Source: an uncultured Candidatus Binatia bacterium
Lineage (GTDB): Bacteria; Desulfobacterota; Binatia; Bin18
Assembly (NCBI GenBank): GCA_965200965.1
Contig: OZ241744.1
Location: 2,208,001-2,272,000, forward strand
Direction: 5' to 3'
Length of the DNA stretch: 64,000 bases
In this document: piece by piece, positions 29,827 through 63,826 of the stretch
How positions within the stretch are numbered: position 1 is the stretch's first letter
Layout of the letters: the number at the start of each line of letters is the position of its first letter
The notes under the pieces: model-generated
Told to the model about the DNA's origin: nothing
Seen by the model: only the letters and a program-made list of their open reading frames with translations
The model's database searches: none
Position numbers and translations under genes: made by a program

Positions 29827-32800
29827 GTGAACATGTCCTCAGATCGACGTGACGGCGACACACTCGAAGCCCTGCTCGAACAGCATGGGGAGCTCATGGC
29901 CGATCAGATGCCCAAGGCTGCGGCCTGGGCCGGCTCTGAGGAGGACGTGCGTCATGCCTGCAACAAGCTGATTGACGAGTTCATCCGCAAAGCCGACCTC
30001 AACGTCAGAGGCCGGCACGAATACAGCTTGGCCGGCGGGCGGATTGACTCGAAATATGGCGGCGTGGTCATCGAATACAAGGCCGCGGGTACAATCACCG
30101 GGCACGGCGCGGGCCTCAAGGCTGTCATCAGGCAACTCAAGGGGCGGTTTCAGGACTTTGCAGCCACAGAACACGTTGGCCGGGAGCGTATTCTCGGCGT
30201 GGGCTGCGATGGCAACACGCTCGTGTTCGTGCGGATGCGCGGGGGCCGGCTTGACGCCGAAGACCCGACGCCGGTCACGCCGCATAGCGTCAGGCGGCTG
30301 CTGCGGGCCGTTGTTTCGCTCGGCGCGCGCGGGCTGTCGTTCACACCTGAGAATCTGACCGCCAACTTCGGCTCAGGGGCCGAGAGCGCACAACAGGGCA
30401 TCCGGCTCATTCATAGCCTGATTCGCACGACCGACAGCCCCAAGGCCCAGACCTTCTTCCGCCAGTGGCAGATTCTCTTCGGCGAGGTATGCGGCTATGA
30501 CATTCACGCACGAAACGCCAAGGTCGAGATGCTGGCCGTCCATTATCAGGTCCCCGACCCGCACCCGGCAGAACTCCTGTTCGCCGTTCACACCTGGTAC
30601 GCCCTCTTCATGAAAATGCTGGCCGCGGAGATCGTCGCCTCTTTCTCGCCGCTGGGAACCTCACCCCTGAAAAAGCTCGTGATCGCGCCAACCGCGGCTG
30701 GACTCCGGGAGGAGTTGCGCCGTCTCGAAAAGGGCGGCATCTGGTCACAGCTCGGCATCCGCAACTTTCTCGAAGGCGATCTCTTCTCCTGGTATCTCGA
30801 CGCCTGGAATGAGGACTGCGCCGCCGCTGTCCGTGCCATGACCGCGGCCTTTGACCAGTTTGACCCGACCACCCTGAGCGTTGACCCCGCGGAATCCCGC
30901 GACCTGCTCAAGCAGCTCTATCAGCATCTGTTCCCCAAGTCGGTCCGCCACGACCTCGGCGAATACTACACGCCTGACTGGCTGGCCGAACTCGTACTTG
31001 ACGAACTCGGCTACGACGGCAACCCGGACAAGCGTCTGCTTGACCCGGCCTGTGGCTCGGGCACCTTCCTGGTCATGGCGCTCAACCGGGTCAAAGCCTG
31101 GTACGACGAACACCGCCACGAATGCGGCTTTGGCGAAGACGAGAACTCCTGCGCAACATCCTGCGCAACATCATCGGCTTTGACCTGAACCCGCTGGCCG
31201 TTATGGCCGCCCGGACCAACTACCTGCTGGCCGTCCGCGAACTGCTGCGCCACGCCGACACCATCGAACTGCCGGTCTACCTGTGCGACTCCGTCATGAC
31301 GCCCTCGGAGTACGGCGAGTTGTTCGCCACCGGCAGCTTGGGCAAGGTGCGGCAACTCAAGACCAGCGCCGGTGATTTCAACATCCCCACCGAAGTCACC
31401 GACAACCGTGAACACATCGGCCGCTACGCCGATACCCTGGAGTTCTGCATCACAAACGACTATTCGCCCGAAGAGTTCATCAAACGGTGTGAGTTCAAAG
31501 CCATCCCCGCCACACAGATCACACTTCACAAGGACCTCTACCGCCATCTCCAGCAGCTCAACGCCGACAACAAAAACGGCGTGTGGGCGCGCATCATCAA
31601 GAACGCCTTTGCGCCGCTCTTCATCGGCAGCGTGGATTACATCGCCGGCAACCCGCCGTGGGTGAATTGGGAGCATCTGCCCGAAGGCTACCGCGACGAC
31701 ATGAAACCCCTGTGGGCAGCATACAACTTGTTCACCCTGTCGGGTTCCGAAGCTCGCTTGGGCGGCGGCAAAAAGGACCTCTCCATGCTGTTCACCTATG
31801 CCTCGGTGGACAACTACCTGAAAGAAGGCGGGCGGCTTGGTTTCGTCATTACCCAGAGTGTCTTCAAGACTCAGGGGGCCGGCGACGGTTTCAGGCAACT
31901 CTGCTACACACGAGCCGATACCGAATGGCACATCAAGCCCTTGATGGTCCACGACCTGAGCGCCATGCAGGTTTTTGAGGGCGCAACCAACCGCACCGCG
32001 GTCTTTGTGTGCAACAAAACGCGCCAGCCCTTTCACTACCCGGTGCAATACACCATCTGGACCGGAGCGTCGCGCATTGCCCAAGACGCGGCTCTTCCAG
32101 ATATCCTCACTGTGACACGCCAGAAGAAAATCAAGGCCATGCCGGTTGTCGCCTCCAAAGACTCATCCCCGTGGCTCACCGCTCCACAGCGGGCGCTCTC
32201 CGGCATTCAGAAAGTGCTCGGGCCGAGCGCCTACCGGGCCTATGCCGGCTGCTGCGGGTGGCTGAACGGCGTGTACTGGATTCGGGTGCTGGACAAGCGA
32301 CCCAATGGCGAGTTGCTGATCGAGAACCTGCACGATGTCGGCAAACTCAAGGTCAGGCATGTCCAGGCCGTCATTGAGCCGGCCTTGGTCTACCCCCTGC
32401 TGCGTGGGAGAGATGTTCGCCGCTGGCAGGCCGAACCCTCAGCCCACACTATTCTGGCTCAGGACCCGGAAACCCGCAAAGGCATCCCGGAGTCCGACAT
32501 GAAACGCCGCCAGCCCAAAACCTATGCCTACCTCAAGCAGTTTGAGGGCGAGCCTGAAAAACCGAAGCCTGGAACACTGCGCGGACGCTCCGGCTACCGG
32601 CGGTATTTCAAGCCCTCCGATCCCTTCTATTCCATGACCAATGTCGGGCCGTACACAATGGCGGAGTGGAAAGTTGTGTGGAGAGAACAGAGTTCCATAT
32701 TCCAAGCGGCCTTGGCTGGGTTGAGCGCGCAACGAGTCATGCTGCCCGACCATAAGCTGATGATGGTTGCCTGTAAAAGCCGGCATGAAGCGGATTTTCT

Positions 32801-33092
32801 TCTTGGAATGCTCAACTCTAGCCCGAGCCTCTTGGCAATTCACGCCTATGTCGTTTCAACCTCGACCTCAACGCATGTCCTCAGCAATGTGGCCGTCCCG
32901 CAGTTCAAAGACACCGACAGCGCTCACACCCGGCTGGCCGAACTCTCGGCGCGCTGTCACACCGCGGCCCAACGTGAGGCCGAACAGGAATTGACAGAAC
33001 TGGAGGCGGAGATTGACCAAGGAGCAGCCAACATCTGGGGCATCACCGACGCCGAACTGCAAGCGATTCAGGAGGCCCTGACCGAGCGCTGA
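29827..33092 (+). CDS. Type IIG-like fused restriction endonuclease/N6-adenine methyltransferase (frameshift near 31140)
   Basis: RIDSKYGGVVIEYK nuclease, GEYYTP, DPACGSGTFL; second frame continues with GFDLNPLA and NPPW. Confidence 0.82.
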
Positions 33093-33142: not shown

Positions 33143-33171
33143 TTGACAGACCCCGGCAGTTCTCATATACC
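33143..33171 (+). promoter_or_regulatory. Sigma70-like promoter of the three-gene module
   Basis: TTGACA-17 nt-TATACC, then RBS GGAGGAG. Confidence 0.65.
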
Positions 33172-33197
33172 GCGGCACGCACCGGGAGGAGCGCAAT

Positions 33198-33503
33198 ATG
33201 GGAGAGGCACAACAGGAACAAGAGACGCTCAATGACCTAGAAGCAGTTCTCACTTCTCAGGATATCCCGCAGCTGTATGTAAACGGGTTTACGACCGTGA
33301 TCAGCAATACCGATATCTGTACGGTGCTGGAACGGAATGGCTCTCCGGTTGCCGTGCTGAATATCTCCTACACAACGGCAAAATCCCTGGCTCAGAAACT
33401 CTCCCAGCTCATCGCCGACTTTGAGACCGTTGCGCAGCACCCTCTGATGACGATAGAGGATGTGAACAGCACCCTGGCACAGCTCAAGAAAGGGAAGCCA
33501 TGA
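33198..33503 (+). CDS. DUF3467-like small protein
   Basis: PQLYVNGF...DI..V...LNISYTTAKSLAQKL pattern. Confidence 0.55.
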   Translation: MGEAQQEQETLNDLEAVLTSQDIPQLYVNGFTTVISNTDICTVLERNGSPVAVLNISYTTAKSLAQKLSQLIADFETVAQHPLMTIEDVNSTLAQLKKGKP

Positions 33504-34105
33504 AGTATAGAGAAGCCATGAAGTATGTGGAGGGACATTCTCAACCCTTCTCCTCTGTGTCTTATCCGTCCACTGACCGACTGCTGGCAAAGCTCCAGGA
33601 GTTAGCCGACCTGCCGGACGGATGGCGATTTGGGGAAGGGATTCCACCCCGGCCACAAGCGATTGACAAGGCCCGTGCCATCTATCGTCGGCTTGCTCTC
33701 CTGTGGCTCAAGGCTGACGTATTCCCAAGCGCAGACGGATCGGTGTGCCTGGTTTTTTATGCCGGCGAGCGGTGTGTTGAGATACAGGTGTCTCAGACCG
33801 GAACACTTGATGTCTGTGTTGAACAAGGGAAGGGGGCTGACTTCCAGGAAATCAAGGACATCCCGGACGCCTCAATGGCCGAGGCGGTAGAAGAAGTGAT
33901 GCAGCTTGCGCAGAGATTGGGCATATGGCACTTATCCGACTCCTTCATCCGAGAGAATACGACAAAACTTTTCAACGTTTCCGCAGTTCATGCTTCAGGA
34001 ATTCGAGCAACGGGACAGGTATATCGCTCGTTGATGTGGAATGCGTTGAAGAACACTCCAGGCCCATCTGTGGGCACCTCGAACACTATTACCACCCCGT
34101 CATAG
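33500..34105 (+). CDS. Hypothetical protein, putative antitoxin with a C-terminal tail
   Basis: ATGA overlap with the upstream gene; LPDGW.FGEG.PP and FPSADGSV core; S/T-rich tail. Confidence 0.55.
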   Translation: MKYREAMKYVEGHSQPFSSVSYPSTDRLLAKLQELADLPDGWRFGEGIPPRPQAIDKARAIYRRLALLWLKADVFPSADGSVCLVFYAGERCVEIQVSQTGTLDVCVEQGKGADFQEIKDIPDASMAEAVEEVMQLAQRLGIWHLSDSFIRENTTKLFNVSAVHASGIRATGQVYRSLMWNALKNTPGPSVGTSNTITTPS

Positions 34106-34338
34106 GCCAGCCTGTCACCTATTGGCAGCTTCCAGCCGATGTACCGCCTGGCACGCAGATCGCAGCAACTGCAAGCAGTACCGGCGACCCCTGTCATCGC
34201 CAACTCTCCGGCCTGTCCAACAATCAGAGTGCCAGGTTCTTTAAGCGTTCGTGCCGCCCCAAGGACATACGGGTCTGTCAAGACGGCATCCCTGTTCCCT
34301 GTAGTCAAGCATTCCTGGAAGCGGTCTTTTCGGGGTAA
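33925..34338 (+). CDS. Hypothetical protein, possible ADP-ribosyltransferase/RES-like toxin
   Basis: N-terminal LIR strand, F..S....GISL and late DPCH resemble ART-fold toxins. Confidence 0.4.
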   Translation: MALIRLLHPREYDKTFQRFRSSCFRNSSNGTGISLVDVECVEEHSRPICGHLEHYYHPVIGQPVTYWQLPADVPPGTQIAATASSTGDPCHRQLSGLSNNQSARFFKRSCRPKDIRVCQDGIPVPCSQAFLEAVFSG

Positions 34339-34458
34339 ATCACAAGACGCGCCGACCGCTCCGCACGAGGCAGTAGCCAACATCTGGGGCATCAGGTAGT
34401 ACGAGGGCTTGGCGACTGGCCCCGGGCCGGGTATATTCCGGGGAGGGAGGAAACGCGC

Positions 34459-34878
34459 ATGGCAAAACTTGAGATGTACCACAACCCCGGCTGAGGCCAG
34501 TCCCGTAAAGCGCTCGAAATTTTGCAGCAGCGCGGCGTCGAGGTCGACGTTACCGAATATCTGAAAAATCCTTTGAGTCAGGCCGATTTTGAGCGGTTTC
34601 TGAGGCTCCTGCCCAACCCGGCCGCGGATCTGGTGCGCAAGGACAAACGCTTTAAGGAACTGGGGCTCAACGAGGCCGACTACACGACCCCCGAGGCGGT
34701 CGTCACGGTCTTGCTTGCACACCCGGAACTGATGCAATGTCCGATCATCATTCGCGGCAGGCGGGCGGTCCTGGCGCGGCCCGGGGAGATGGTTACAGCA
34801 TCCTTCCCCCTGTGGGACACCCCCCTACCCGACCGCGTACTCCGTATGCGGTCGGACATGGGCGGGATGAAAGCCTAA
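34459..34878 (+). pseudogene. ArsC-family copy 1 (TGA at codon 12, R-to-C change, foreign C-terminus)
   Basis: MAKLEMYHNPG*GQSRKAL; MQCPII; 3' end runs into antisense xisI. Confidence 0.7.
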
Positions 34879-35160
34879 AACGATATGGTCTTTGGGCACA
34901 CCAGCCTGAACCAGATCTTTCGCAATCCCGTGCTCCGTTCCATCTCGCTGAATCCACAGCTTGCCGTCAATAATATCGATGTGGACCAGACCGCCATGCA
35001 CCCGTCGCCCATTATCCCAGCCAACATTCACGAGCAAATAACGGTCATGGCCCCGGTCAAACACCGCCTCCGTCCGAATGTCCTCATACGCATACGGCAG
35101 GCGCGCATACTCGGTGAAGATCGTCTCAACGATCTGACGATATTCGTCTAAGGAAGCCAT
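34825..35160 (-). CDS. xisI: XisI family protein
   Basis: DRYLLVNVGW, HIDIIDGKLWIQRDGTE, IVLGF. Confidence 0.9.
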   Translation of the reverse strand: MASLDEYRQIVETIFTEYARLPYAYEDIRTEAVFDRGHDRYLLVNVGWDNGRRVHGGLVHIDIIDGKLWIQRDGTEHGIAKDLVQAGVPKDHIVLGFHPAHVRPHTEYAVG

Positions 35161-35564
35161 TGCGTAATTACCTCCTGCTGTGGATCAAAACCGATCACCC
35201 TGGTGAGCTGATTCTGGAGCAAGAGATGTCCGAGCGGCTCCTCGAAAATATCCCGGAGTGCGTGCTGAGGCACGGCAAGATAGAGGATACGCTCAGGGTC
35301 TCTCTCGGCCAGGACGGTCCGGTAGAGTATGTATTGTCCCAGAGCCTTTTCAAGATCATCAATCTCTGAATCTCCGACAAAACTCTTGACTTCCACAGCT
35401 ATACGCTGCCCCGCTTTTTCTGCTGCAAGCAATCGCTCAGCACCCAGGTCAACATACAAATCTTTTTTACCCCATGAGAGGCGAAGCGGGTCATGGGTAA
35501 TTCTCCAGCCGTCTTTTATGAGGGCGTTTCTGACCCCGTTGTGATACAGGTCCTTGGCCGGCAC
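35148..35564 (-). CDS. xisH: XisH family protein
   Basis: PAKDLYH..VRNALIKDGWRITHDPL, DLGAE, AVEVKSF, ALGQY. Confidence 0.9.
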   Translation of the reverse strand: MPAKDLYHNGVRNALIKDGWRITHDPLRLSWGKKDLYVDLGAERLLAAEKAGQRIAVEVKSFVGDSEIDDLEKALGQYILYRTVLAERDPERILYLAVPQHALRDIFEEPLGHLLLQNQLTRVIGFDPQQEVITQWLP

Positions 35565-35666
35565 GGTACAGAATTGTACACGGATTCCGCCACAAAGACC
35601 ACCGGTCCAGCCGTACTTGGCGACTGGCCCCGGGCCGGGTATATTCCGGGGAGGGAGGAAACGCGC

Positions 35667-36020
35667 ATGGCAAAACTTGAGATGTACCACAACCCCGGCT
35701 GAGGCCAGTCCCGTAAAGCGCTCGAAATTTTGCAGCAGCGCGGCGTCGAGGTCGACGTTACCGAATATCTGAAAAATCCTTTGAGTCAGGCCGATTTTGA
35801 GCGGTTTCTGAGGCTCCTGCCCAACCCGGCCGCGGATCTGGTGCGCAAGGACAAACGCTTTAAGGAACTGGGGCTCAACGAGGCCGACTACACGACCCCC
35901 GAGGCGGTCGTCACGGTCTTGCTTGCACACCCGGAGTTGATGCAACGTCCGATCATCATTCGCGGCAGGCGGGCGGTCCTGGCGCGGCCCGGGGAGATGG
36001 TCAGGGAACTCCTGGACTGA
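35667..36020 (+). CDS. arsC: ArsC/Spx-family reductase, probable selenoprotein (Sec12)
   Basis: RBS GGAGG; YHNPG-TGA-GQSR aligns with YHNPxC; LMQRPII and ARP intact. Confidence 0.78.
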
Positions 36021-55504: not shown

Positions 55505-55882
55505 GTGATAACAGGTGTGTGGGAGTTCCGGGAATATCAGAGCAGCAAGGGGAAGCGTCCGGTGTCGGAGTGGTACGAAGCGTTGTCACAGAAAAACCGG
55601 GCGAGCGCCGACAGGTTCCTGGGTATCGTCCAGAAGCTGGAGCAGCTCAAACCACCGCGCTTCAAGAAATTTCGGGAGTTGCTGGAAGCGCGCTGGTTCG
55701 GGCAAAACAGGGTCCCGCATCGGATATTCTGTGACAAGCCATCTGACAGGCAAGTGACATTTCTGTGTGACTGTACCCACAAAGACAGGCGATATACCCC
55801 GACAAACGCCTGCAATACGGCTCTCAGACGCCGTGACGAAATACAGAACGGGGAGGCTGGCACGCATGAGTTCAATTTCTAA
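55505..55882 (+). CDS. RelE/HigB (Gp49-like) toxin (start uncertain)
   Basis: GKRPVSEWY, LLEARW, HRIF, KD..P; upstream of an HTH gene. Confidence 0.7.
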   Translation: MITGVWEFREYQSSKGKRPVSEWYEALSQKNRASADRFLGIVQKLEQLKPPRFKKFRELLEARWFGQNRVPHRIFCDKPSDRQVTFLCDCTHKDRRYTPTNACNTALRRRDEIQNGEAGTHEFNF

Positions 55883-56546
55883 GCTGTGGCGGAAATTGGA
55901 GACAAAGGAGTACCGGGACGGCTACACGCAAGCGCAGCTCTCCATTGAGGTCCCTTTCCAGATTCGTGCGCTCCGCAAAGCACGCGGCTGGACCCAAGCC
56001 CAATTAGCTGAACGGTGCGGCATTCCGCAGGCCCGGATATCCCACATTGAACAGCCCGGGCGGGACCCGCTGTCGTTACGCACACTGTACCGGCTGTCGG
56101 CGGCCTTTGATGTCGGGCTGCTCGTCGAGTTTGTGCCCTTCAGTGAGCTGATCCGCCGTGAAGCGGCGTTTGACCCCAAGACCTTCAGCGTCCCCAGCTT
56201 CAAGGACGACCGGATGCAGACAGTTTTCTCTATCGCGTCTACATCAGCGAAGTTGTCATCTTTCAGAAGCGCGTCCACGCCTGGACGGATACAGCATCAG
56301 CGGCAAGTGGCGGAGAGATGGATCCAAGCGTGGCGGCCTCGCACGGATCGCACGGTATGGATACAGCATCAGCCACAAGCACAGGATGAGGCCCGTCCCA
56401 TGTCGCTCAAGACGGATCAACTCCCAGGGAAAGCGCCGCTATGGCCACCTTCCCTGCCGGTCAATCCAATCTCCTCCATTCCAGGAGATTACCGATATTA
56501 CAGCGGGAGGATGTCCCATGCCTACGAAACGCAGGTCACAGGATAA
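55866..56546 (+). CDS. XRE/HigA-like HTH antitoxin with a ~110-aa low-complexity C-terminal tail
   Basis: IRALRKARGWTQAQLAERCGIPQARISHIE, then an S/P/R/Q-rich tail. Confidence 0.78.
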   Translation: MSSISKLWRKLETKEYRDGYTQAQLSIEVPFQIRALRKARGWTQAQLAERCGIPQARISHIEQPGRDPLSLRTLYRLSAAFDVGLLVEFVPFSELIRREAAFDPKTFSVPSFKDDRMQTVFSIASTSAKLSSFRSASTPGRIQHQRQVAERWIQAWRPRTDRTVWIQHQPQAQDEARPMSLKTDQLPGKAPLWPPSLPVNPISSIPGDYRYYSGRMSHAYETQVTG

Positions 56547-56829
56547 GCCTGTCAACATCAATGAATTGCCGCAGCGGCAGGCGGCGGCATATGTTTCGAC
56601 ATACTCGAATAATGTTGAAGCAGGGACCACGCCTTGGGACTTCCGGTTTCTGTTCTTCGAGATTACCGAAGATGAAAGCGGGGAGCTTATACGCGAGAAG
56701 AAGGCTCGCGTGGTCATGTCCCCTCAGCACGCTATCGCCTTTTCTCAGTTATTGAACAATACTGTTGCCAAGTGGATGAAAGACCACGCCTCCGATGAGA
56801 ATGCTGACACAGAGCGTGAGGACACCTGA
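56518..56829 (+). CDS. DUF3467-like protein
   Basis: YSNNV...DFRFLF...ARVVMSPQHAIAFSQLL; RBS GGAGG. Confidence 0.72.
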   Translation: MPTKRRSQDKPVNINELPQRQAAAYVSTYSNNVEAGTTPWDFRFLFFEITEDESGELIREKKARVVMSPQHAIAFSQLLNNTVAKWMKDHASDENADTEREDT

Positions 56830-56851: not shown

Positions 56852-59800
56852 GTGGATAATCGCTTCTTTGCCCAGCCGGTCCTGAACTCTCCCTACGCCT
56901 ATCCGACGCACCACTGGGAGTTGGACGAGCAGGGCCAGCCCACACAACGGATCAGCGAAGGCCGCCGCCGTGTGGCCTTCATCACCCCGGTTCCCACGCC
57001 CAGGAAGCGCAAACAACTCGAACTGGCCCTTGGCCCCGGCCAGGGACTTTCAAGCCCAGAGCAACAGTACGACCCGACCTCAATTATCAACGCCCTGCGC
57101 CGTCAGGTAGACCAGTGGCGCAGCCGGCCAGACCCGGCCGACTGGCGGGTCACGCCACAGACCGCCCGGCTGCTCCAGCACTGGCGACACCACCAATTTC
57201 ACACCATCCGCCCGTTCTTCTGTCAACTTGAAGCGCTTGAAACCGTGATCTGGCTGACTGAGGTCGCGCCAGGGGCCGGCAAGACCGGCAGGGACTTTCT
57301 CAGCTACCTGAGCAACGCCAACCCCGGTCTGGCCCGGCTGGCCCTCAAGCTGGCCACTGGTGCCGGCAAGACCACCGTCATGGCGATGCTGATCGCCTGG
57401 CAGACCATCAACGCGGTCCGCCACCCCGCCAGCCGGAGGTTTACCCGCGGCTTCCTCGTCGTCACCCCGGGCATCACCGTCAAAGACCGGCTGCGCGTCC
57501 TGTACCCGAACGACCCGGACAGCTATTACGCCAGCCGGGAACTGGTTCCCAGGGATATGCTCCTTGACCTGGAACGGGCCAAGATCGTGATTACCAACTA
57601 CCACGCCTTCAAGCGGCGCGAGCGCCTGGAGTTGTCAAAAGGCGGCCGCGCCCTGCTCCAGGGTCGGGGCGCGGCGCTGAGCACCCTGGAGAGCGAGGGC
57701 CAGATGCTTCAGCGGGTCATGCCCGAGCTGCTGGGCATGAAGCACATCCTGGCGTTGAACGACGAGGCCCACCACTGTTATCGGGAGAAGCTGGGAGCAG
57801 ACGCCGAGGCCGGCTCAGGAAGGGACGGAACGTGCCGTCAGGGCGAGAGGAAGGCGACCCGTTCCATCCTCGGCCAGGACAGGGCAGAGGCCGACAAAAA
57901 CAACGCCGCGGCCCGGCTGTGGATCTCCGGTCTGGAGGCGGTGGGCCACAAGCTGGGCCTCAGCCGGGTGATTGACCTGTCGGCAACGCCGTTTTTCCTG
58001 CGCGGCTCAGGCTATGCCGAGGGCACCCTCTTTCCCTGGACGGTGAGCGACTTCTCGCTGATGGACGCGATTGAGTGCGGGATTGTCAAGCTGCCGCGCG
58101 TCCCGGTGGCCGACAATATCCCCGGCGAGGGGATGCCCAGGTTCCGCAACCTGTGGGATCATATTGGCCGGCAGATGCCCAGAAAAGGCCGGGGCAAGAC
58201 CCGCGGTCTCGATCCGCTCAGCCTGCCAGTCGAGCTGCAAACCGCGCTGGATGCCCTGTACGGACACTACGAAAAGACCTATGCGCGGTGGATGGAGCGC
58301 GGTGTTGCGGCCCCCCCGTGCTTTATTGTGGTGTGCAATACCACCGCGACCTCCAAGCTGGTGTACGACTACATTGCCGGCTTTGAGCGCCACAACCCGG
58401 ACGGATCAACGACGCTGGAGAATGGCCGTCTGGCGCTCTTTCAGAACTTTGACCAGGGCGGGAGCCCCCTGGCCCGTCCCCGCACCCTGCTTATTGACAG
58501 CGAACAGCTCGAATCCGGCGCTGCCCTTGACCCGAACTTTCGGGCTATGGCGGCTGACGAGATTGCACGCTTCCGCCGTGAGATTGTCGAGAGGGGCGAC
58601 CGTCGGCAGGCCGAACACCTTTCTGACCAGGACCTGCTCAGGGAGGTGATGAACACGGTCGGCAAGCCGGGCCGGCTCGGCGAGTCGATCCGCTGCGTGG
58701 TGTCGGTGGCCATGCTGACCGAAGGCTGGGACGCCAACACCGTCACCCATGTGCTGGGCGTCCGCGCCTTTGGGACCCAACTCTTGTGCGAGCAAGTCAT
58801 TGGCCGGGCTTTGCGCCGGCAGTCCTATGAGCTCGACGACGACGGGCTGTTGCCTGTTGAGTACGCCGATGTGCTGGGGATTCCGTTCGACTTTACCGCC
58901 AAGCCGGTCGTTGCTCCGCCCCAGCCACCGCGTGAGACCGTCCGGGTCAAGGCCGTGCAGCCCGAGCGCGACCGGCTCGCCATCCGGTTTCCGCGTGTTG
59001 AAGGCTATCGGGTTGAACTGCCCGAGGAACGGCTCAGCGCCGCGTTCACCAAGGATTCTGTGCTGGAACTGACGCCGGACCTCGTCGGCCCGCCCATCAC
59101 CCGCAACGCCGGCATTATTGGCGAAGATGTCAACCTCAGCCTCGAACACCGGCAAGACCTGCGTCGCTCAAGCCTGCTGTACCAGCTTGCCAAGCGGCTG
59201 CTGTACACCCACTGGCGCGACCCCGGCCAGCAGCCCAAGCTCCACCTCTTCGGCCAGCTCAAGCGCATCACCAGGCAGTGGTTTGACAGCTGCCTGCGCT
59301 GTACCGGCGGCACCTATCCGGCTCAACTCATGTACCAGGAGCTGGCCGATATGGCCTGCGAGCGCATTACTGCCGGCATTACCCGCTCCCTGGTGGGCCA
59401 ACGGCCGGTCAAGGCCATGCTTGACCCCTACAACCCCACCGGCTCCACCAGCCAGGTGAACTTCAGCAGCTCCAGTCGCAACCGCTGGCAGGCGGACGCC
59501 CGCAAGTGTCACCTCAACTGGCTGATGCTGGACAGCGACTGGGAGGCCGAGTTCTGCCGTGTGGCCGAGGCCCACCCCCGGGTCCGGGCCTATGTCAAGA
59601 ACCACAATCTCGGCCTGGAAGTCCCCTACCGCTACGGCTCGGCCCCGCGTCGCTATATCCCCGACTTCATCGTCCTGCTTGACGACGGCCGGCCCGACCC
59701 CGTGCAGTTCATCGTCGAGATCAAAGGCTATCGGGGCGAAGACGCCAAGGAAAAAAGGGCGGCGATGGAGACCTGCTGGCTGCCTGGGGTCAACCGGCTC

Positions 59801-59899
59801 GGCGAGTACGGACGCTGGGCCTTTGCCGAGTTCACCGCCGTCTATGAGATTGACCGGCAGTTCGGGGAGCTGGTTGCGGCCCAGGTGGGCCGGGGCTGA
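56852..59899 (+). CDS. Type III restriction enzyme Res subunit
   Basis: ATGAGKT, DEAHH, SATP, EGWD, QVIGR, PDF..EIKG. Confidence 0.9.
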   Translation: MDNRFFAQPVLNSPYAYPTHHWELDEQGQPTQRISEGRRRVAFITPVPTPRKRKQLELALGPGQGLSSPEQQYDPTSIINALRRQVDQWRSRPDPADWRVTPQTARLLQHWRHHQFHTIRPFFCQLEALETVIWLTEVAPGAGKTGRDFLSYLSNANPGLARLALKLATGAGKTTVMAMLIAWQTINAVRHPASRRFTRGFLVVTPGITVKDRLRVLYPNDPDSYYASRELVPRDMLLDLERAKIVITNYHAFKRRERLELSKGGRALLQGRGAALSTLESEGQMLQRVMPELLGMKHILALNDEAHHCYREKLGADAEAGSGRDGTCRQGERKATRSILGQDRAEADKNNAAARLWISGLEAVGHKLGLSRVIDLSATPFFLRGSGYAEGTLFPWTVSDFSLMDAIECGIVKLPRVPVADNIPGEGMPRFRNLWDHIGRQMPRKGRGKTRGLDPLSLPVELQTALDALYGHYEKTYARWMERGVAAPPCFIVVCNTTATSKLVYDYIAGFERHNPDGSTTLENGRLALFQNFDQGGSPLARPRTLLIDSEQLESGAALDPNFRAMAADEIARFRREIVERGDRRQAEHLSDQDLLREVMNTVGKPGRLGESIRCVVSVAMLTEGWDANTVTHVLGVRAFGTQLLCEQVIGRALRRQSYELDDDGLLPVEYADVLGIPFDFTAKPVVAPPQPPRETVRVKAVQPERDRLAIRFPRVEGYRVELPEERLSAAFTKDSVLELTPDLVGPPITRNAGIIGEDVNLSLEHRQDLRRSSLLYQLAKRLLYTHWRDPGQQPKLHLFGQLKRITRQWFDSCLRCTGGTYPAQLMYQELADMACERITAGITRSLVGQRPVKAMLDPYNPTGSTSQVNFSSSSRNRWQADARKCHLNWLMLDSDWEAEFCRVAEAHPRVRAYVKNHNLGLEVPYRYGSAPRRYIPDFIVLLDDGRPDPVQFIVEIKGYRGEDAKEKRAAMETCWLPGVNRLGEYGRWAFAEFTAVYEIDRQFGELVAAQVGRG

Positions 59900-59956
59900 C
59901 CCGGGCCGGGGGCCGGACGCTTGCCTTTGTGGCCAAAAACCCTGTAGAAAGAGCCT

Positions 59957-60232
59957 GTGCCCAAATACCTGCTCATTCTTGAAGACCCGTCCGCGCTGGA
60001 CAAAGACAAGCTGACCGCCCGCTACAAGGTGGTCTACAGCATCAACCCGCATACCTGGGCGATCCACACCAGCGACTCTACGCGCCAAATAAGCGAAGCC
60101 TTATTCTCCCCCCCGTCTGAAACCTACCTGCCGCCGTCCCATTCGGTGTACCGGATAGACGCCTGGTGGGGATACGAGACCCGCACGCTGTGGGAATGGA
60201 TGGACCGCAAGGAGGCCTGGCTTCGTGATTGA
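59957..60232 (+). CDS. Small hypothetical protein
   Basis: 91-aa ORF overlapping the next gene. Confidence 0.5.
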   Translation: MPKYLLILEDPSALDKDKLTARYKVVYSINPHTWAIHTSDSTRQISEALFSPPSETYLPPSHSVYRIDAWWGYETRTLWEWMDRKEAWLRD

Positions 60233-60866
60233 CGATGCCCCTGACCGCGCTGCGCCGCAAAGCTCCAGGCTGCCGGAGAATCTGCCGGAGGGGCAGCCTC
60301 ACCATCCTGCGGAGCAGGACCCGTCTGCGCTGCAAGGAACGGCTGATCTGCGCGAACGCTTTGGGCGCATTGAGGAGAGAACCGAGCACCTGCAAGGGGA
60401 TATTGCCCAGCTGCGTGGCGAGATAGGCGAACTGCGTGGAGAAGTGGGCGAGCTGCGCAAGGAGATGGGCGACATCCGCAGCACAATGGCCACCCGGAAG
60501 GAGATGGACGACATCCGCAGCACAATGGCCACCCGGGCGGATATTGCCCAACTCCGTGACGAAATCGGCGGGCTGCGCACTGCTACCAGCACCGATATTG
60601 CCCAACTCCGCAGCGAAATGCAGGGGATGGTCGGTCAGACCGCGTTCTGGTCCGGCATCGCCATTGTTGTCGCGGTTCTGCTTGGGTTCGGGACGCTGGT
60701 CTATAACAAAATCCCTGACCAGTTCCCCCCACCACCAGCCCAGCCAAGCCTTGAGTCCGGGCACACGCCGGCGCACCCCCCCCCGCCGCCTGAGCGTCCG
60801 CCCGTTCGCCTCAAACTCTTGCCTTGCCATACTGTATCGTGTGGATCATGGGACACATACATTTGA
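60225..60866 (+). CDS. Coiled-coil repeat protein with a TM helix
   Basis: Heptad repeats, 39-bp tandem duplication, hydrophobic segment. Confidence 0.6.
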   Translation: MIDDAPDRAAPQSSRLPENLPEGQPHHPAEQDPSALQGTADLRERFGRIEERTEHLQGDIAQLRGEIGELRGEVGELRKEMGDIRSTMATRKEMDDIRSTMATRADIAQLRDEIGGLRTATSTDIAQLRSEMQGMVGQTAFWSGIAIVVAVLLGFGTLVYNKIPDQFPPPPAQPSLESGHTPAHPPPPPERPPVRLKLLPCHTVSCGSWDTYI

Positions 60867-60970
60867 CACATGGCAATGCTTAGCCTACTCTCTGGGTGAT
60901 CCGCCCCTTGGCAGTACGCTGTGTTCCTTGCGATCCCTGAACGCAGCCAGCCCCTTGGGGCTGTTTTTTT
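60863..60970 (+). promoter_or_regulatory. Promoter, structured leader RNA and intrinsic terminator before the NYN fragment
   Basis: TTGACA-17-TACTCT; stem GCTGTGTTC/GAACGCAGC; CAGCCCC-tt-GGGGCTG-T7. Confidence 0.6.
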
Positions 60971-60984
60971 GTGAGAAGCGTTTG

Positions 60985-61077
60985 ATGACCAAAGTCGCAA
61001 TCCTCATTGACGGCGGATATTTCCTCAAACGTCTTCCGACAATCTGTCCGCAAATTGATTCCTCATTGACGGGCTGA
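60985..61077 (+). pseudogene. NYN-domain RNase, 5' fragment
   Basis: MTKVAILIDGGYFLKR, a typical NYN start; stops after 30 aa. Confidence 0.7.
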
Positions 61078-61129
61078 CCAGCGGATTTCCCCGGCCGACT
61101 CCCAACGCAAGCCGAGAAAAAGGAACAGC

Positions 61130-63826
61130 GTGAAGAAGGCGAAGAGACAGGCCAAAAAGCAGGTCAGGACGCTGACCCACCCCGAGGCCAAGCGGCCCAA
61201 TATCCCCACCGCGGAGCTTCAGGCGGTCATGGTCCAGGAGGAGCAGACCCCCGTCCGGGTGGCCTGTGAACGCCGCAATCGGGACCTGGACCCGCAGCTG
61301 GTGTGGCGTGGCAAGGACGAGCAGGACTGGTCGGAGCTGGTGGTCCACGCCCCGCCGCTCTATATTCAGGAGAAGGTCCACCCCAAGGCCCTGATTGATG
61401 ACTTGGCGGCCAGCGGGCAGAAACGCGCCGCTGAAAGGACGCCGCAGCCTGACCTGTTCGCCGACTTCAACGGCCTGCCCGACGAGGCCGCGGCCGCAGC
61501 GTTCTACCAGCACGAGGCCAGCTGGACCAACCGCATGATCCTGGGCGACAGCCTGCATGTGATGGCCTCACTGGCCGAGCGCGAAGGGCTGCGCGGCAAG
61601 GTGCAGTGCATCTATCTTGACCCGCCCTATGGCATCAAGTTCAACTCCAACTTTCAGTGGTCCACCACCAGCCGCGACGTGAAGGACGGCAGGGCCGACC
61701 ACATCACCCGCGAGCCCGAGCAGGTCAAAGCCTTCCGCGACACCTGGCGGGACGGCATTCACTCCTACCTGAGCTACCTGCGCGACCGCCTCACCGTGGC
61801 CCGCGACCTGCTGACCGAAAGCGGCTCCATCTTCGTCCAGATTGGGGACGAGAATGTGCATCGCGTCCGCGCCCTCATGGATGAGGTGTTTGGGGAGAGC
61901 AATTTCATTAACTTAATTTCATTTACAAAACGGAGTCCACAGCCGGATGACTTCCTATCGTCAGTAACTGATTACTTGGTTTGGTTTGGAAAGAATCGCC
62001 AGCAATCAAAATTCAGAGCCCCGTTTTTCCCGAAGAACGAATACTCCTCCGAATTCGTCACAAATGACCTTACATCATCACACTTCTATGACTCACCTGA
62101 TTTCCAGTTTGAGGGAAAGATATTTAAGCCAAGCCAAAGATATTGGTCTACAAGCATTCAAGGAATGAATAGGCTGTCTTTTGCCGGCAGGCTAATCGCC
62201 ACAAAGAACTCCATCAGATTTAAGAGATACCATGACGACTTTCCGGTCATGTATGTCGGCAATACTTGGCCCGATGTTGCCTTGTCTCATTTTGGCGATG
62301 AGAAGTGGTATGTGGTTCAAACCGCCTCCAAGGTCATCCAACGCTGCATCCTGATGACGACCGACCCGGGCGACCTGGTGCTTGACCCGACCTGCGGTTC
62401 GGGCACGACCGCGTATGTGGCTGAGCAGTGGGGGCGGCGATGGATTACGATTGACACATCCCGCGTTGCGCTGGCCCTGGCTCGCGCCCGACTGATGGGC
62501 GGGCGTTATCCGTATTACCTGCTGGCCGACAGCCCCGAAGGTCACGCGAAGAAAGCCGAACTCGCCGGCAAGGCTCCGTCTGAAACGCCCAGCTCTGGCA
62601 ACATCCGCCAGGGCTTTGTCTATGAGCGGGTGCCGCACATCACGCTGAAATCCATCGCCAATAACGTCGAGATTGACATGATCTGGGAGGAGTACCAGGC
62701 CACGCTTGAACCGCTGCGGGAGGCGCTCAATGCCGCCCTGAACGAGCAGTGGCGGGAGTGGGAGATACCACGCGAGGCCGGCGAGCACTGGCCGGCGGAG
62801 GCCAGGCGGCTGCACGCCGAGTGGTGGGAGGCACGCATCGCCCGCCAGCGGGCCGTTGACGCTTCTATTGCCGCCAAAGCCGACCATGAATATCTGTACG
62901 ATAAACCCCACGAGGACAAATCCAAGGTCCGGGTGGCCGGGCCGTTCACGGTCGAGAGCCTGTTGCCGCACCGGGTGCTGGCCGTTGATGAGGATGACGA
63001 GTTGATCGGCCTGGAAGCGGACCGGAACAGCGAGCGGCCTCAGGGCGAGACCGACTTTGCCGGCGTCATCCTGGAGCACTTGCGGATCGCGGGGGTGCAG
63101 CAGGCCCACAGGGAAGACACCATCCGGTTCCAATCTGTCACCGGCTGGCCGGGCCGGCTGGTGTGTGCCGAAGGCCGCTATGTCGAAGGCGAGGAAGAAA
63201 GCGGAGCGGAACACCGCGCCGGCATCTTTATCGGCCCGGAGTTTGGCACGGTGTCGAGGGCCGACCTGGTGGCCGCGGCACGGGAGGCCGGCGAGGCCGG
63301 TTTCAGCAGCCTGATCACCTGCGCCTTCAATTATGACGCCCATTCCGCGGAGTTTGACCGGCTGGGCCGCCTCCCGGTGCTCAAAGCCCGCATGAACGCC
63401 GACCTGCACATGGCCGATGCCCTGAAAAACACCGGCGGCGGCAACCTGTTTGTGATCTTCGGCGAGCCGGATATTGAACTGCTGGAGGCCGAGGACGGCA
63501 CGATGCGGGTCAAGATCAAAGGCGTCGATGTCTTCCACCCCAACACCGGCGAGGTCCGCAGCGACGGGCCGGAGGGCATCGCCTGCTGGTTCATTGACAC
63601 CGACTACAACGAAGAGAGCTTCTTTGTCCGCCACGCCTATTTCCTGGGCGCAAACGACCCCTACAAGGCCCTCAAGACCACCCTCAGGGCCGAGATTGAC
63701 CCGGACGCCTGGGCGGCACTCCACAGCGACACCTCACGCCCCTTTGCCAAGCCGGCGTCTGGCCGCCTCGCCGTCAAGGTGATCAACCACCTGGGCGACG
63801 AGGTGATGAAGGTGTTCCGGGTGTGA
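61130..63826 (+). CDS. Type III RM methyltransferase (Mod)
   Basis: GDSL, DPPYGI, DPTCGSGTT; near the Res gene. Confidence 0.9.
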   Translation: MKKAKRQAKKQVRTLTHPEAKRPNIPTAELQAVMVQEEQTPVRVACERRNRDLDPQLVWRGKDEQDWSELVVHAPPLYIQEKVHPKALIDDLAASGQKRAAERTPQPDLFADFNGLPDEAAAAAFYQHEASWTNRMILGDSLHVMASLAEREGLRGKVQCIYLDPPYGIKFNSNFQWSTTSRDVKDGRADHITREPEQVKAFRDTWRDGIHSYLSYLRDRLTVARDLLTESGSIFVQIGDENVHRVRALMDEVFGESNFINLISFTKRSPQPDDFLSSVTDYLVWFGKNRQQSKFRAPFFPKNEYSSEFVTNDLTSSHFYDSPDFQFEGKIFKPSQRYWSTSIQGMNRLSFAGRLIATKNSIRFKRYHDDFPVMYVGNTWPDVALSHFGDEKWYVVQTASKVIQRCILMTTDPGDLVLDPTCGSGTTAYVAEQWGRRWITIDTSRVALALARARLMGGRYPYYLLADSPEGHAKKAELAGKAPSETPSSGNIRQGFVYERVPHITLKSIANNVEIDMIWEEYQATLEPLREALNAALNEQWREWEIPREAGEHWPAEARRLHAEWWEARIARQRAVDASIAAKADHEYLYDKPHEDKSKVRVAGPFTVESLLPHRVLAVDEDDELIGLEADRNSERPQGETDFAGVILEHLRIAGVQQAHREDTIRFQSVTGWPGRLVCAEGRYVEGEEESGAEHRAGIFIGPEFGTVSRADLVAAAREAGEAGFSSLITCAFNYDAHSAEFDRLGRLPVLKARMNADLHMADALKNTGGGNLFVIFGEPDIELLEAEDGTMRVKIKGVDVFHPNTGEVRSDGPEGIACWFIDTDYNEESFFVRHAYFLGANDPYKALKTTLRAEIDPDAWAALHSDTSRPFAKPASGRLAVKVINHLGDEVMKVFRV

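Follow-up and report, generated by a model that had tools for sequence, protein, structure and literature searches.

The window analyzed here is a stretch of 64,000 nt from an uncultured Candidatus Binatia bacterium (contig OZ241744.1), in which three open reading frames on the + strand follow one another in the order C-A-T and encode proteins of 101, 201 and 137 aa, just as an earlier reading made from the letters of this DNA (the "sequence-only reading") had delineated them. Gene C (33198..33503, +) encodes, according to profile comparison and structure prediction, a remote DUF3467 homolog with an alpha-beta-beta-beta-alpha-alpha arrangement, a putative non-SecB chaperone or sensor. Gene A (33500..34105, +), recognized by a PADLOC match, encodes a putative antitoxin composed of a folded N-terminal domain and a tail, and its start shares bases with the stop codon of C (ATGA). 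Gene T (33925..34338, +) encodes a predicted ART-fold protein and putative toxin, with conserved R5, S34 and H91 as well as C40, C49, H51, C90 and C118. The tail of A (59 aa; 33925..34105, +), a putative chaperone-addiction-like element, is overprinted on T, i.e. one piece of DNA serves, in two different frames, for both the last 59 residues of A and the first 60 codons of T.

Outside this overlap each of the three genes is under purifying selection by the measure of codon substitution: dN/dS is below 1 for C, A and T in nine pairs (0.13-0.67 for C and 0.17-0.54 for the N-terminal domain of A), the tenth pair being saturated. Where C and A join, a strain-specific 18-bp tandem duplication (33491..33526, +), identified from the repeat listing and the contigs of individual sequencing runs, supplies the first 6 residues of A, which is 195 aa long without it; it is missing in two of the four runs compared. 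The module is covered by contigs of 4 runs from 3 studies and is therefore no assembly artefact. The stretch is present in sponge metagenomes, and none of the RNA datasets was listed as containing it.

Upstream of C lies a sigma-70-like promoter candidate, TTGACA-17-TATACC (33143..33171, +; -35 box at 33143-33148 and -10 box at 33166-33171), followed by a Shine-Dalgarno-like GGGAGGAG (33184..33191, +). The sequence-only reading had credited the module with a promoter of its own. Both hexamers are indeed in place and are unchanged in G007, the one relative compared, but the candidate is not among the promoter calls of a consensus scanner, which omits it because the -10 box lacks the final T; judged from the sequence, an independent promoter is plausible.

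Genomic context of the module

The module follows a type IIG restriction-methyltransferase gene (29827..33092, +), which a frameshift splits in this assembly and whose two halves are recognized by PADLOC with E-values of 6e-207 and 5e-104. The frameshift lies near 31141, where two of the four runs have 2 letters fewer, and the gene may be intact in other strains. This gene and the module form one variable cassette: in G000 and G007 both are located between an sbcC-like gene and arsC, and in four congeners, from which the cassette is absent, another gene is found there. Other copies of the module in Binatia occupy other sites, several of them adjoining the 3' ends of restriction-modification (R-M) genes, as judged by eye.

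The sequence-only reading had described the module as bracketed by a 20-bp direct repeat. Copy 1 (33026..33045, +) falls within the 3'-terminal part of the type IIG R-M gene, copy 2 at 34375..34394 (+), and the repeat is exact and beyond chance (2 matches versus 0.02 expected); even with up to 2 mismatches allowed, the genome contains no third copy. As a defining bracket it does not stand, since in the closest relative, G007, the module occupies the same site with a degenerate second copy; the repeat is therefore a local scar outside the system. For the same reason we rejected it as an integration or excision site, the congeners moreover lacking the R-M gene and the module together; no joined (excised) form is listed in the contigs of the 4 runs, contigs that show presence only. 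Immediately downstream, at 34408-36020, a XisI gene (34825-35160, -) and a likely XisH gene lie between two identical copies of at least 300 nt, which comprise the promoter and start of the arsC-family gene; contig depth is approximately doubled over the copy, and the insertion is absent from G007.

Distribution of the C-A-T module

Loci were collected by the motifs of T alone (n=51), and 36 were kept after dropping 15 (9 duplicates, 3 at contig edges and 3 with a broken or short T). A three-gene operon of putative toxin, putative antitoxin and third gene is present in 34 of the 36 distinct loci. All 34 tailed loci among them possess a DUF3467-like first gene, assigned in 32 cases by the C profile, in L022 by a score above the Pfam cut-off and in L044 at E 0.043. 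The module is found in at least seven phyla, with T identities of 28-83% (the highest value in G007, which belongs to the same genus), and both the order C-A-T and the phase are conserved in Binatota, further genomes of the Desulfobacterota phylum, Nitrospirota, Bacteroidota, Pseudomonadota, Chloroflexota, Planctomycetota and Verrucomicrobiota. Sweeps of individual phyla for T gave 6 positive genomes out of 301, 6 out of 251, 1 out of 351 and 1 out of 351.

Among relatives of the Binatia genome the module is present in 9 of 61, at differing sites and often beside R-M genes, a distribution that we read as patchy and mobile. Decayed copies are found in L034, L050 and L118. The last of these is among the loci added later, which also include two complete modules (L114 and L116) and L085 with a divergent DUF3467-like gene. 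One exception has a long tail but a 216-aa first gene (L086:843-1493) in place of C; its sister L085 has the DUF3467-like gene there. No C-type gene was found in L086, and for the 216-aa protein we could detect neither a match to a known family nor any relatives. In magnetotactic Nitrospirota two divergent copies of the module often occur (L026-L033, L115-L120).

T is predicted to adopt an ART-like fold

The T family comprises 435 clusters at 50% identity in a profile search. None of 129 members matched a Pfam family at a meaningful level, T has no sequence relative among solved structures and no usable match in the Atlas, and tblastn gave no match in the phage and plasmid collections; T was found on 1 viral contig. 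Among the 129 homologs H91 is invariant (100%), S34 is conserved in 98% and R5 in 88%, and further conserved positions are F19, F24, C40, C49, H51, Y56, D88, C90 and C118, of which the Cys/His set suggests a metal site.

The structural model of T (pLDDT 96, pTM 0.89) places R5, S34 and H91 each on one of three strands, which would correspond to the ART strands. The top rows of the Foldseek search were CC0527 and TreTu (E 0.04-0.08), and a wide structural search returned the tRNA 2'-phosphotransferase Tpt1 as the best match (Z 5.7, rmsd 3.5, 98 aligned residues), with Tne2, Tse2, TreX, PltA, RES toxins, Scabin and DarT also listed. Nearly all of the 50 listed neighbors represent what we take to be ART, NADase or RES folds. 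T shares the ART-fold core with Tpt1, CC0527 (DUF952), TreTu/TreX, Tne2 and RES toxins at 6-17% identity. Each score is modest, including the best Z of 5.7, and it is because the list is so uniform that we confidently predict a split beta-sheet ART-like fold for T. The R/S/H spacing in which the sequence-only reading had seen a resemblance to ART/RES folds is thus borne out both by conservation and by the predicted structure with its neighbors in the wide structural search. If the model is correct, T represents an unannotated ART-fold family characterized by an Arg/Ser/His motif and, probably, a metal site.

C is a remote homolog of DUF3467

Against DUF3467 (PF11950) the product of C scores 13 bits (E=0.11), below the curated Pfam cut-off of 25 bits. 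Comparison of the C profile with that of six HigBA-linked DUF3467 proteins, including the one encoded at 56518 in the window, gave an hhalign value of 94.6% (E 6.9e-8 over 60 columns); the relationship between the 33198 and 56518 proteins is visible in profile-profile comparison only, as direct BLASTP and profile-versus-single-sequence searches returned nothing. Among 32 proteins from the C slot 7 matched DUF3467 in Pfam, one of them above the cut-off, and it is in L022 that this slot is occupied by a true DUF3467 member. At the profile level these results support C as a remote DUF3467 homolog. The label "DUF3467-like" given by the sequence-only reading thus falls short by the Pfam cut-off and stands by profile-profile comparison, which also confirms the homology of the 33198 and 56518 proteins. 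In the literature searched, from which subscription journals are largely missing, we found no described function for DUF3467.

A Pfam search with the 32 C proteins gave no SecB match at E-values of 1 or below, no SecB was found among the PDB sequence matches of the C profile, and SecB is absent from the listed structural matches, a list that does not rule out an unlisted family. In the model of C (pLDDT 88, pTM 0.67) three strands are accompanied by a long helix. COMM domains rank first among the structural neighbors (Z 5.2, rmsd 2.1, 54 aligned residues), followed by nucleic-acid-binding PUR/PC4 domains (Z 3.6-3.9), all of them under the reliable range of the structural tool; Foldseek gave no significant match. 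With COMM and PC4-PUR-Whirly-like proteins C shares the core of a three-strand sheet and a helix (Z 3.6-5.2) and no sequence similarity. The main text of the paper on prokaryotic COMMD proteins (PMC13392464) makes no link to toxins or defense.

The tail of A is overprinted on T

The N-terminal domain of A matches the C-terminal part of PDC-M32A, the PADLOC profile of a candidate defense system, in 19 of 33 A proteins (best E 1e-7), and its search in the Atlas returned unnamed clusters only. The match covers only profile positions of about 257-359 of the 375 aa in PDC-M32A, which has some 250 further residues. Neither T nor six of its homologs match PDC-M32B, and PDC-M32 (named in PMC12429752) is modeled by PADLOC without a third gene.

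The sequence-only reading had noted the S/T-rich tail of the 201-aa protein, and 16 of the 59 residues are indeed S or T (hand count); the alternative-frame overlap with T had been missed. This overlap spans 109-490 nt in 34 of the 36 kept loci, its phase is always identical, and the tails range from 35 to 160 codons. In all 17 divergent clusters (T identity <55%) the tail frame runs through at least 35 codons without a stop, versus 4.3 clusters expected from synonymous resampling, a contrast somewhat flattered by the 35-codon threshold, which was chosen after the shortest overlap had been seen, and drawn from kin whose independence is incomplete. An equally long open third frame occurs in 1 of the 17 cluster representatives, and likewise in 4 of 9 loci of the Binatia cluster and in L031. 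Beyond the stop of A, the tail frame contains 61 stops in 1185 codons. Taken as a comparison of reading frames, these data show selection against stop codons in the tail frame.

The sequence of the tail is weakly constrained as far as substitutions in T reveal: synonymous change is 0.184 in the overlap versus 0.211 outside (Fisher p 0.31; lower inside in 9 of 10 pairs), and this contrast is reversed in the tail-less pair described below. The S+T fraction is 0.236 in the tails; this frame gives 0.193 once the stop has been passed, and simulated sequences give 0.177+-0.011, so that most of the S/T richness can be put down to the frame and the tails show a modest surplus. Since the tail is overprinted on T, it cannot be deleted without hitting T and can be lost by a stop codon only, as in the one lineage discussed next. 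A long overlap maintained in one phase across phyla is unusual in itself and offers a natural case of a putative regulatory peptide overprinted on a toxin gene.

Joint loss of C and the tail

In two of the 36 loci (L005 and L006) A lacks the tail, its stop lying 5 nt before T, and there is no C upstream. C was not found elsewhere in these genomes, which are 100% complete, in a search that detected the positive control G035; the A domain is retained together with T. The two loci form one clade (100/99) nested within the tailed, C-bearing modules (98/94), and the old tail frame has acquired further stops. Read on this tree, C and the tail were both lost in one derived lineage, a single evolutionary event. 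As they flank the domain of A on opposite sides, two separate changes were needed. The co-variation of the tail with the small gene is seen both in the 34 of 34 tailed loci with a DUF3467-like gene and in this joint loss.

Removal of the ChAD has been reported to render TAC pairs chaperone-independent (10.1101/2024.02.24.581848), a result that the joint loss in L005 and L006 mirrors; here, on genomic grounds and in one lineage, the extension is dispensable once C is gone. The tail-less, C-less pair is a natural revertant and a built-in control. Two more tail-less A proteins, P0186 and P0190, are present in the database.

DUF3467 accompanies a second type of toxin

The same window contains another module (55505..56829, +), identified by Pfam, tree and hhalign, which comprises a Gp49/HigB-like toxin, an HTH antitoxin with a long tail and DUF3467 (56518-56829), and has exactly the layout of HigBAC and MqsRAC with DUF3467 standing where SecB stands. 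The C-A-T module shares with it just the small-protein type. Directly after it, at 56852-63826, lies what reads by eye as a set of genes for a type III-like restriction helicase and methyltransferase, and hence as another defense site.

We found 24 DUF3467 matches in 21 of 61 related genomes. The neighborhoods that were read (15 loci and the window) include five of the Gp49/HigB-HTH-DUF3467 type, i.e. 5 of the 24 matches are toxin-linked. Most of the nine other loci adjoin sigma-54 activator or tail-sheath-type genes (by eye), and 2 of the 10 strong matches look stand-alone; going by these neighborhoods, DUF3467 is clearly not toxin-specific. In L063, L066, L068-L070 and L073 the genes directly 3' of it are, by eye, of the tail-sheath or contractile-injection type, and a sigma-54 activator often precedes it.

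Searched in the opposite direction, with the HigB-like toxin as the query, 9 of 55 genomes yielded 10 matches. At 6 HigB/Gp49-HTH loci with an adjacent DUF3467 the antitoxin is 164-225 aa long. Without DUF3467 it is 148 and 159 aa long in two close kin and 104 and 121 aa in two distant plain pairs; the gap is small at its edge (164-168 aa with versus 159 aa without DUF3467). One HigBA pair possesses a DUF6941-like third gene (L129:371-1708, E 0.014). The HigA tails beside DUF3467 overlap no toxin gene and yet co-vary with DUF3467. This evidence from length is weaker than the joint loss in the C-A-T module, because one deletion could remove both the end of the tail and DUF3467. The observation from which the sequence-only reading had suggested a general DUF3467-chaperoned family, one small-protein type next to two toxin types that are not related to each other, is borne out in several genomes.

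Comparison with known systems

In the literature the TAC class is defined by a SecB-like chaperone that doubles as a phage sensor, and its genes are ordered toxin, antitoxin and then chaperone (Mets et al., 10.1101/2024.02.24.581848). The C-A-T module is likewise a three-gene operon, but in another order and without SecB sequence homology. With CmdTAC (PD-T4-9) it has in common the three genes, a small predicted ART-fold toxin, a partner with a long C-terminal extension and a small putative protector. The closeness to CmdTAC itself that the sequence-only reading implied is not supported, however. The order is C-A-T instead of T-A-C. CmdT carries the catalytic triad H-Y-[E,D,Q] (Vassallo et al. 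2024, PMC11618068), whereas T has Arg/Ser/His and the conserved Cys/His set, and T is therefore not CmdT. CmdA consists of two helices and a tail (PMC11618068), whereas A has a folded alpha/beta domain. Finally, the third protein is DUF3467-like with no match to SecB, and the tail shares its DNA, in another frame, with the putative toxin gene. By analogy, the module probably works like TAC and CmdTAC systems, yet as these are defined it falls outside both. We found no description of the C-A-T system in the literature searched, a body from which subscription journals are largely missing; the supplementary neighborhood tables of the TAC and PADLOC studies may list such loci.

Proposed mechanism and alternatives

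We put at about even the chance that the C-A-T module is a toxin-antitoxin-chaperone-like defense switch in which a DUF3467-type C takes the place of SecB. From binding onward, we infer the following course of events. The folded domain of A would hold the predicted toxin T neutral, and, by analogy with HigBAC and CmdTAC, the tail would destabilize A unless it is covered by a C oligomer. A phage protein or stress would compete for C, A would then be lost through proteolysis or aggregation, and freed T would modify nucleic acid, most likely RNA, with NAD+, or destroy NAD+, so that the infected cell arrests. If this is true, a different fold doing the job of SecB widens the TAC class and gives DUF3467 its first function, and many unannotated three-gene islands are explained. 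We more tentatively entertain a broader proposal, possible though short of probable, that DUF3467, as a COMM/PC4-like oligomer, constitutes a second, SecB-independent class of addiction chaperones by which, in many phyla, toxin-antitoxin pairs with no relation to one another are armed as phage sensors, the degron here being an overprinted peptide locked on the toxin coding sequence.

The most serious alternative, which we regard as unlikely, is that C belongs to a complex of three proteins as a stoichiometric subunit, with a scaffolding or triggering role (for example as an activator or by sensing phage directly), and binds the tail of an A protein stable by itself, without chaperone addiction. 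Co-occurrence and co-loss speak for this as well, COMM domains, the best structural match of C, are oligomeric scaffolds (PMC13392464), and L086 indicates that another protein can fill the first slot. On the other hand, tails of variable length and low specificity, borne by two unrelated types of antitoxin, are easier to reconcile with a generic unfolded client than with a fixed interface, and the tail-less pair persists in two species.

Somewhat less probable still is the view that A and T form an ordinary toxin-immunity pair, that C is a PC4/PUR-like nucleic-acid-binding regulator and that the overlap serves purely for translational control of T. The hardly constrained tail sequence and the place of PUR/PC4 folds next after COMM domains among the neighbors of C agree with it, as does the fact that T has its own start, often preceded by a purine-rich leader. 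However, proteins of the C family are acidic and contain few aromatic residues (K+R 8.8%, D+E 12.2%, aromatic 5.2%), which argues mildly against nucleic-acid binding, the HigA tails co-vary with DUF3467 in the absence of any toxin-gene overlap, and the co-loss of C and the tail is left unexplained.

We consider it improbable that T is an NAD-using repair or modification enzyme of the Tpt1 type and no toxin, and that the module is an accessory enzyme set. Tpt1 is the best structural match of T, and no conserved catalytic Glu was seen in the 129 homologs, the invariant residue being His91; but T, a single domain of 137 aa, lacks the second domain of Tpt1, its obligate partner is related to PDC-M32A, several copies have decayed, and the distribution is patchy and mobile at defense-type sites.

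A programmed -1 frameshift that yields an A-T fusion, with the tail as the unshifted by-product, would account for the invariant phase and for in-frame fusions in the database (P0084 and P0023), but is very improbable, as essentially every T homolog is provided with a start codon for itself (M at column 1 in 84%), the overlap comes after this codon, and in the tail-less pair a stop precedes T. In P0084 the A domain is fused in frame to T, and in P0084, P0023 and L050 alike such a fusion to T or a part of it may be natural or may reflect frameshifted copies.

Loci led by a different first gene

Besides the toxin-antitoxin-chaperone-like module proposed above, we found genes of the TIGR04255 family (16 matches in 13 of 151 genomes), which often come first in loci of three genes, followed by a partner and by a small third gene of ART-like appearance (L089, L090, L091, L093-L098 and L102). 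An assignment of the first gene of L086 to a TIGR04255-like type was tried and found unsupported. Comparison of the C-A-T module with the TIGR04255-led loci gave weak hhalign values of 4-5%. Two of the partners in these loci match PDC-M32A and two of the third genes weakly match PDC-M32B, and the loci are possibly a parallel family with another first gene.
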